NCBI GenBank assembly: GCA_964016885.1
Contig: OZ024742.1
Span: 363,568,001-363,632,000 of the forward strand
DNA: 64,000 nucleotides
Reading direction: 5' to 3'
DNA from: Eledone cirrhosa
Taxonomy: Eukaryota
Shown: piece by piece, positions 21,068 through 23,051 of the stretch
Layout: each line of letters begins with the position of its first letter
How positions within the stretch are numbered: position 1 is the first letter of the stretch
Notes under the pieces: model-generated
Databases searched by the model: none
Told to the model about the DNA's origin: nothing
The model's input: only the letters and a program-made list of their open reading frames with translations
Position numbers and translations under genes: made by a program

Positions 21068-23051
21068 CTTTTTTTGTTTAATATAAGGAACTGTTTCATT
21101 GTTTTATTCATTATTTTTTTAATACTTTATCTTGACTCTGTATTCCGTTTATCTTTCACCGAAAGTGATTTTGAATGCATCTCTTCTTTCCATGATATCC
21201 GGATTACATTGAGTTCTTCATACGGATTGGACACTACCGTAAACTCTTGGTAGATTTATCTACATATATATATATATATATATATATATATATATATATA
21301 TATATATATATATATATATATATATATATATATATATATATGTGTGTGTGTGTGTGTGTGTGTGTGTGTGTGTGTGTGTGTATGGGTGAATTACGATAGA
21401 GTATATATGAGTGGGAGAATCTTGTCCACCATATTACATAAATAACCATTCAGAAAAACCGTGTGTAATGTGATATTGCTGGGATTATTTTGTCATCTTA
21501 CTGGTACGTTCTTCCTTTTAATGTAATTTATTAGGCGTTAATATATTTCGTTTTAATCAATTATCGTTGAAAGTTTCTTCTAGATTGATATAATATTAGT
21601 TATGACATTATAGCTATCGTGACATATTTAGAGTTGAGCTTAGACTTGATCCGGTTGCTGCATTATATGATGTGAATAGTGATAAATATTATATTATTGT
21701 GTCAAGGAGTAAGATTGAACATCGTCGCTTCAACTTGTATAAAATAATAAATAAATACGTGTCAATTTATGGCAGTCGTTGTAATAGGAGACACGTTCAG
21801 GTGTTTTCAAATCATTTTTTTTGATTTTACTTACAATGCACTATAGAATAAGTAAACCTTTTGGTATAATTTGTAGCTGAAGCTGAAAATGCATTCAAAA
21901 AAGACATTTAAACATATTAGCATAGTATTTGTTATTAATATAGATAATTAAAAATACAGAATACTTGTGTGTGCTTCCTGCTTTAATCAATAAATGGAGC
22001 AAGGTTATCATTCAGTAATATACGCTTGTTGTTTTGTATTATTTTGTTGTGTTGCAATGTCTTCATTCTTAGCTTCAACGTTGCTTACCTTGTCAGTTAA
22101 ATATGAACAATATTATAAATCTCAGTCGTTTACACATTGTGAGTTAAAAGCTTGTTCTTTCGCGATGCAGCTAATTACACCCACGACAGTAAAATGGCAG
22201 GAGGCCGGACTGGTGAAATTCCTTCAAAGATTTATTATAGCAAACACTATGTACATTTCAGTGACCAAATTCTGTAAGATCCTGGTGACATCATCAGGTG
22301 TTTATTGCATAAAAGTTATATAATAAAGGAATAATGGTAAACACAATCCAAGAGGCTAAAGAACATAGAAAAATGTTTATGACTCGAAGGCGGTCAGGGC
22401 CAGCTTTCGCCAGTTTGGCTGACCACATTCGAGTGGGGATTCTCATCAATTTCGACTTGCCGGTTTGGGTAGGGGCTGTATACATATAACGCCTACTTCT
22501 ACCACGCTGCCGCTCACCGCCATTTGGACACATGCTACTAGCAAAGGAGTTACTGGCTGTGTTTTAGTAACGATACCAGTAAATATCTCATTTCCTGGAC
22601 GATATAATTTCTGTGTAATATAACTTCACAAATGCAGATATTACATCCGCAATGTTTAGAAAATCACGCAATATCAGCGGATATTTACGTAATCGGGCTA
22701 TTACATGTCTTCAGCAGGTTGCCTAAATCAAACGATAGGTCCATGCAGCGTGTGTTAGCCATCACTACTGGATAAGCTCTCTAGCAGTTCTCGGCATTCT
22801 TACACACTTCCGCTAATGAAAAGAGGAAGAATTCCATCGTAGACGTAAGGAATTCGCGCCAAAACAAAGCATTCTACCGGCCTTTCGTATATGCGCATAT
22901 ACACATAAGGAGGTTTATGTATATATACATGTATAGAAGCAAATAATAGCTGGTTTGTGAAACAAAGCCGAAATATAACTTTGACAACTTTGATAGATTT
23001 TGGCCAGTATTGGCCCAGGCCATGTCTAACTTAATAACACCATCTGGCTAT

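Follow-up and report, generated by a model that had tools for sequence, protein, structure and literature searches.

The TTGAG motif found in several families of hammerhead-bearing elements in the window (the whole 64,000-nt stretch of DNA analyzed here) is the bulge and one strand of a predicted helix that pairs with an upstream arm. The motif is real, but the downstream pairing proposed for it in an earlier note is wrong. The helix is conserved, duplicated, clade-wide, and tied to both insertion ends of its elements, and probably positions their reverse transcriptase (RT). It is apparently undescribed: as the earlier note had supposed, no description was found in Rfam or in the literature searched, with Repbase notes, figure files, and subscription journals outside reach.

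A bulged helix paired with an upstream arm

In the predicted structure, TTGAG provides the bulge and the 3′ strand of a helix of the form 5′-RCUC-Y..R-UN-GAGY-3′, which is closed by the upstream arm. This helix reads ACTC-TGC..GTA-TT-GAGT in family B and ACTC-TAC..GTA-TT-GAGT in family C; further families have ACTC-CAG..CTG-TA-GAGT, GCTC-TGT..ACA-TA-GAGC, and GTTC-TGG..CCA-TT-GAAC. The spacing between the arms ranges from ~5 to 100 nt between families, some of which have inserted stems; in family A, the arms flank an inserted stem of 60 nt. Families A and C carry two such helices, H1 and H2, as does D. Family B has only H1, and E and F are without the canonical form.

All ten motif sites listed in the earlier note are present at their positions in the window, and the ATTGAG hexamer alone is not enriched there (25 occurrences versus 30.8 expected). 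A pattern for the upstream-paired bulged helix gives 5 matches in the window versus 0.16 expected and a second one gives 1 versus 0.01, both patterns having been written after these families had been seen. A covariance model built from 10 hairpins of other genomes has 9 window matches at E values of ≤10. The top 7 are all motif sites, namely, both B sites, four C sites, and one site of a further family; the A and D sites, with their long inserts, are missed. Searches of Rfam at E values of ≤1 give no match to the helices in the window or in 6 outside loci. In predicted folds, the GAG of family A pairs upstream with a probability of 0.97, C3 is at 0.54, B2 and C2 are ambiguous at 0.22 to 0.28, and B1 and D favor other pairings. 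The A tail has a z score of only −1.63.

MAFFT was unable to align 5′ arms with unequal loops, so covariation was counted both in an arm-anchored set and on a model-fitted alignment. In the arm-anchored count, the lower stem covaries as G-C, A-T, and T-A. Pairs L1, L3, L4, and U1 were selected for in that set, and the claim for the upper stem therefore rests on an unselected test of 118 sites chosen by GAGC[ATG]CT alone. An upstream GCTC is found at 87 of the 118 sites; the bulge starts with T in 84 of these 87 and is free at its second base. The three pairs of the upper stem are formed at 84, 62, and 57 of the 87 sites versus 66, 36, and 34 in shuffled sequences, a count that ignores the kinship of the sequences. 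Mismatches include 14 G.U and 18 A.C, so the RNA strand is not favored over the cDNA strand. The model-fitted alignment of 94 distinct matches, which likewise ignores kinship, has a covariation score of 0.256 versus 0.087 for shuffled alignments, and none of 500 shuffles scores as high.

According to the earlier note, TGAG pairs with CTCA in the loop of a downstream hairpin, yielding a 3′-terminal pseudoknot or kissing loop. The hairpins and loops that it named are present in the sequence, with complementary loops in A, B1, and D, and a hairpin with TTGAG as its loop, proposed for B2 and C, is competitive in the predicted folds of B2 and C2. However, downstream Watson-Crick complements of at least 5 bp are found in only 2 of the 16 host families and 2 of the 18 outside leaders, where shuffling predicts 2.7 and 2.1. 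With G-U pairs allowed, the counts are 12 of 16 versus 11.8 expected and 11 of 18 versus 9.9, so that such pairings are as frequent in shuffled sequences as in the real ones. Among 38 B copies, the downstream loop varies independently of the motif arm: it reads ATTGAACC with the arm unchanged in 10 copies and ACTCAACC in only 3. The pairing that covaries, in the upper stem, is the one with the upstream partner. The downstream model, which lacks a conserved covarying pairing beyond the shuffled level, was rejected and can hardly be correct.

The downstream pairing in family F is real. The GAGTGAG/CTCACTC helix folds at 0.91 to 0.97 and is intact in 38 of 41 copies, with one compensatory copy. 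This family lacks the canonical motif, and the helix is of an ordinary long-range kind; its GAGTGAG lies upstream of the F short end and is thus a different feature, not a form of the shared motif. Nor does the ATTGAG of family E belong to the motif, as other E copies read TTTAGG, TTAAGG, AAGAGG, or GTGAGG at this place. Family E has a candidate variant helix with a 3-nt bulge, GTTC-TGTT..AACA-YAA-GAGC (locus L035, plus strand, 2150 to 2185; window positions 29070 to 29100, minus strand). It lies only 4 nt past the hammerhead cleavage site and does not coincide with ATTGAG.

Hydra-type elements and their leaders

Judging from their sequences, the hammerhead-bearing elements are Penelope-like retrotransposons (PLEs) with the protein motifs of the Hydra clade. 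A hammerhead descriptor run over 1.5 to 1.7 Mb of host loci, from a 3.0-Gb assembly, reveals dozens of families inserted in (TA)n; the C and D copies come from sampled stretches of this assembly. The Hydra account in PMC8557442 lists as marks of the clade an RWK motif, DKT, a CxCX5C linker, a C-terminal GIY-YIG endonuclease without CCHH, and CxxC and CxH around E and N. The A protein, a single open frame with RT and C-terminal GIY-YIG domains (783 to 866 amino acids in 8 of 8 copies examined), has RWR (RWK in most of the homologues shown), DKT (D116, K117, and T118), the CxCX5C linker, and CxxC and CxH beside conserved E and N residues, with no CCHH. The CxCX5C and CxxC-CxH features can also be read in the linked endonucleases. 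Since families B and C are linked to ORFs of the A type, the ORFs of all three belong to one retroelement clade, and these families are not, as had been proposed, among six unrelated ribozyme families. With the analysts' own descriptor, two further Hydra features, a canonical hammerhead in the pLTR and insertion in (TA)n, are also present. At one outside locus (L350), Rfam Hammerhead_1 scores 27.6 bits, below the 34-bit cutoff. The Rfam scan of the window at E values of ≤1 yields no hammerhead or other ribozyme match among 146 weak matches, nearly all of them to miRNA models over AT/CA repeats.

Assignment to Neptune or Nematis PLEs was rejected, since the A protein lacks the CCHH motif, the CX2-5CxxC linker, and DKG. 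A Pfam search with this protein returns no family, and no relative was found in the viral contigs searched. The endonucleases of helix-bearing elements are only 27 to 42% identical. Residues R36, R38, and W39, which lie in a long helix of the predicted structure, are kept in 33, 37, and 37 of 38 homologous proteins, respectively. The best fold matches of the predicted A structure are TERTs (Z up to 17.1; rmsd, 4.3 over 304 residues). The first 50 residues of the model lie within the aligned range for TERTs and outside it for group II, DGR, and retron RTs. The TERT region aligned with the N-terminal part is presumably the RNA-binding domain.

The A insertion in the window consists of an inverted, short-ended arm on the left and a 5′-truncated direct copy with a long end (the tail) on the right (Table 1). 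The inverted arm stops at the short end, ~7 nt before the would-be start of H1.

Table 1. Positions of helices and related features in the window
Feature	Position	Strand	Comment
Family A insertion, Hydra-type Penelope-like element	17599..21263	+	Both ends in (TA)n
A inverted arm with hammerhead core	17599..17840	−	CTGAAGA at 17801
A C-terminal ORF fragment	17842..18261	+	CxCX5C linker and GIY-YIG endonuclease
A type I hammerhead-like fold	20925..21066	+	Own descriptor; core at 20935; predicted cleavage after 21057
A helix H1, 5′ arm	21135..21147	+	ACTC lower stem, TGTA upper stem; begins ~7 nt past short-end position
A helix H1, 3′ arm	21201..21214	+	TACA upper stem, TT bulge (21209-10), GAGT lower stem; contains the ATTGAG assigned earlier to A
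A tail terminal hairpin	21234..21253	+	Loop is not the partner of GAG
Helix H1, second A copy	409..489	−	
Helix H1, family B copy 1	12553..12573	−	
Helix H1, family B copy 2	12806..12826	−	
Degenerate helix H1, 5′-truncated C copy	1864..1890	+	5′ arm minus one base
Helix H1, family C	15198..15223	+	
Helix H1, older C copy	23204..23229	+	TC bulge
Helix H1, family C	30989..31014	+	
Helix H1, family D	13506..13566	−	A.C at outermost pair; inserted stem in loop; fold prediction favors other pairings
Helix H2, family D	13385..13401	−	~11 nt beyond D long-end position
Helix H1, further Hydra-type family	23786..23808	−	GCTC/GAGC form; family absent from earlier note; best match of the covariance model trained on outside sequences
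Broken endonuclease fragment	16483..16939	+	Family carrying C ends
Family F long-range helix	30359..30434	+	GAGTGAG (30359-65) and CTCACTC (30428-34); real, not the shared motif

Several features of the window and of these families are recorded here for their own sake. A 45-bp satellite with ~719 copies occupies the window's second half (31696 to 64000), a 60-bp array with 36 copies lies at 7424 to 9592, and the A 3′ untranslated region (UTR; 18343 to 19135) contains degenerate AT-rich tandem repeats of 109 to 139 nt. Family A is young and abundant: the 150 best matches in the host assembly are 96 to 100% identical, many of them in long open frames. A first look with the endonuclease query (17842 to 18261) gives 61,573 candidates in that assembly. 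Family B (L362 and C3:311081681-311081854 of the host assembly) includes autonomous copies (ORF 45% identical to that of A) and retrozyme-like short tandem units of ~140 to 220 nt. Family F (29500 to 30880) is a tandem ORF-less hammerhead unit of ~490 to 510 nt with internal (TA)n and 1340 first-look host candidates. In D and C (13647 to 13733 and 13047 to 13133, both minus strand; also L253 and L258), the hammerhead core is an apparent U3-A8 variant, TTGATAA, of a type described for schistosome elements in PMC4209133. Another family has CAGAAGA in this core.

The helix was also sought in other genomes, with a descriptor noted before 78 related loci were collected from metagenome contigs; 73 were scanned and five partial ones omitted. 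A hammerhead upstream of the ORF is found in 27 of the scanned loci, in ~20 non-alignable groups. This looser descriptor finds the helix in 26 of the 27 leaders and at least two helices in 19, versus 14.8 and 3.3 in shuffled sequences. A stricter one, written after the leaders had been viewed, finds it at least once in 26 and twice in 21 of the 27, versus 1.96 and 0.28 expected, and in 14 of 16 downstream copies versus 0.79 expected. Both H1 and H2 are located in the leader, between the hammerhead and the start codon, with H2 mostly 15 to 40 nt before the latter. By eye, both helices can be read in the published Hydra-1_Ajap consensus and H1 in two other entries of the Hydra part of the same file (PMC8557442, supplement). 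In the host, 13 of 15 long-tail families and 1 of 10 others (a spurious match in F) have the helix; this tally is illustrative only, as the families were hand-picked from 87 links after the motif was known and three tail starts were hand-adjusted. A fresh 200-kb host sample contained few new families and makes a weak blind test: one family fits with a mismatch, and one does not fit.

Helices and the two insertion ends

Two 3′ ends are seen in each family, the long end lying 65 to 160 nt beyond the short end. The motif is found in the tail between them, and in full-length copies this tail is the leader that precedes the ORF. Read-through of the long end in host copies reveals a second helix immediately beyond it in seven families: A, C, D, and four others. 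The earlier note placed the motif 44 to 50 nt from the (TA)n junction. This distance holds for A, B, and C but not as a rule: across families, GAG lies ~38 to 91 nt from the long end, so there is no fixed 3′-terminal distance.

The position that is kept is the one relative to the helices. Insertion ends cluster 6 to 8 nt 5′ of H1 (short end) or H2 (long end). Counting only junctions up to 75 nt upstream of a helix, those that lie 2 to 16 nt from it number 29 of 32 for H1 and 36 of 40 for H2 in family A (mode, 7 nt) and 28 of 33 and 45 of 50 in family C (modes, 8 and 6 nt). In most other families, the median offset is 5 to 10 nt; it is larger (11 to 16 nt) for H2 of family D. Junctions at both helices share ~3 nt of TA microhomology with the target. 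The 359-nt A leader contains 45 TAT/ATA sites, and insertions end at just two places in it. Three outside loci (L301, L323, and L343) have clean (TA)n junctions 2 to 9 nt before H1 or H2; at L311, the sequence diverges 12 nt ahead of H1, and L314 is at odds with this pattern.

Among inverted insertions, 126 of 129 have one short and one long end. The same combination is seen in families that lack the canonical helix (13 of 13) and thus does not depend on it. Family B has a fixed long end, but no recognizable 3′ arm of H2 was seen in 6 read-through loci inspected. Two of the helix-less families link to CCHH-type endonucleases, and in this small sample the canonical helix thus looks specific to Hydra elements.

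A hammerhead family with a CCHH-type endonuclease (L138, plus strand, near 4050 to 4112) has a possible other bulged helix, GTTT-CAA..TTG-CT-AAAC, ~6 nt past its short end; the sister family (L080, plus strand, near 310 to 369) reads GTTT-CGA..TCG-CA-AAAC. This candidate, which is absent from the predicted fold, could be the pad of another clade. At L037 (plus strand, 4050 to 4480), the long end of a non-Hydra element runs directly into a canonical helix; this is probably a nested insertion at the short-end TA of another family.

A possible landing pad for the reverse transcriptase

The helix, usually present twice in the leader, is probably a landing pad for the RT of the element that fixes the priming site 6 to 8 nt upstream. 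This reading starts from direct observations: a helix sequence that covaries, the presence of two copies, the places at which both ends fall, and the combination of one short with one long end. The bulged U might engage in a U.A-U triple and create an arginine pocket like that of TAR and 7SK; at least three host families have C instead of U in the putative triple pair. The conserved RxRW helix of the TERT-like N-terminal domain would bind the bulged helix. The endonuclease would nick both (TA)n strands, and each 3′-OH would pair with UA/UAU just 5′ of the pad. Priming at H2 would produce the long end, with H1 copied into the tail, and priming at H1 would produce the inverted short end, after which the two cDNAs would join head to head. 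Copying would continue from the leader into the 3′ UTR and ORF on a circular or tandem RNA. As H2 is missing from the downstream repeat of the donor, priming beside it would need such an RNA, which hammerhead cleavage at both repeats would supply. The earlier suggestion of an RNA structure for RT recognition or end definition holds as far as a conserved structure common to non-alignable elements is concerned, and the RT role is plausible.

In a more specific and tentative version, two TAR-like arginine-sandwich helices might serve as a ruler for an RT dimer. Each protomer would dock through its telomerase-like RNA-binding domain and prime on the opposite target strand 6 to 8 nt upstream of its pad. 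If true, this would account both for the tail and for the inverted arrangement of Penelope-like insertions, and a portable tag of ~20 nt would program internal initiation by a telomerase-sister RT. The work on the Poseidon element PAc reported in PMC11167929 describes an RT, predicted to be a dimer, that starts at two internal sites bounding the tail, requires RNA 3′ of them, and extends both target strands. However, PAc belongs to another clade, and its start sites are in an AC-rich stem-loop inside the ORF. Internal initiation at two sites was shown there and a binding motif only hypothesized, whereas the Hydra-type elements have a defined, duplicated leader helix.

An unlikely alternative is that only H2 is a priming pad, that the inverted arm arises by copy-back of the first cDNA, and that H1, in this cDNA, determines the short end by signaling a stop or resolution. 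Among the insertions are many near-perfect palindromes with 0 to 3 nt at the center, H1 is present in the long-end cDNA, and the mismatches show no strand preference. However, H1 and H2 agree in sequence, in their offset of 6 to 8 nt, and in the 3-nt TA microhomology, which points to a single geometry. Both boundaries of the tail are RT start sites on RNA in the Poseidon assay (PMC11167929).

A signal at the DNA level has still less in its favor. The GIY-YIG endonuclease would recognize the hairpin, or the inverted repeat, in the donor DNA or in cDNA and would nick at a TA 6 to 8 nt away, resolving a longer-than-unit intermediate. In PMC8557442, the tail is attributed to endonuclease-mediated resolution, and work cited in PMC11167929 found the Penelope tail to be necessary for recognition by the endonuclease. 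The A.C mismatches would be G.T on the other strand. The mismatch types and the C found in place of the triple-pair U are compatible with both this explanation and copy-back. Yet the variable arm spacing with inserted stems fits double-stranded recognition poorly, and the conserved bulged U with a free neighbor fits a known RNA motif. Quite improbably, the helices might instead be bound, in translation control or packaging, by an element protein or a host factor, with the ends merely falling in adjoining AT-rich spacer; the closeness of H2 to the start codon and the fixed long end of B without H2 agree with this, but two independent sites share one offset in many families while dozens of other leader TA sites are unused.

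As for the landing pad, RT-bound RNA structures that set the start of copying are known from the 3′ stem-loops of LINEs and SINEs, the R2 3′ UTR, hepadnavirus epsilon, and elements of telomerase RNA. Unlike these, the helix described here is internal, lies 3′ of the first copied base, and is present twice, for two ends. The PLE RTs are the sister group of telomerase, so a template-positioning helix bears on the origin of telomerase-type template definition. A conserved, duplicated helix at a fixed distance from both ends bears both on how PLE RTs recognize their own RNA and on the one-sided tail. The motif can also be used to locate Hydra leaders and to delimit them.

The Hydra PLEs of PMC8557442 have the same GIY-YIG, RW(K/R), DKT, and CxCX5C features, no CCHH, a canonical hammerhead, a (TA)n target, and the same inverted insertions with a one-sided tail. 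The tails are 65 to 160 nt here versus 30 to 40 nt in that account. The word "stem-loop" does not occur in its main text, nor do "hairpin" or "stem-loop" in the text of its supplement.

The helix resembles the arginine sandwich of TAR and of 7SK ASM3 and ASM4, as presented in PMC6189040, in having a paired base, a bulged U with a free neighbor, and then G-C and A-U pairs. In the unselected test, the bulge T and the pair before the bulge were each found at 84 of 87 sites. In contrast to TAR and 7SK, the bulge here is on the 3′ strand of the hairpin, the loop is free, and the U of the A-U pair is replaced by C in a few families. The likeness, seen at the level of sequence, with its putative triple and arginine binding, would be convergent. 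The one-base bulge form of 7SK ASM4 (PMC6189040) is also found in one host family.
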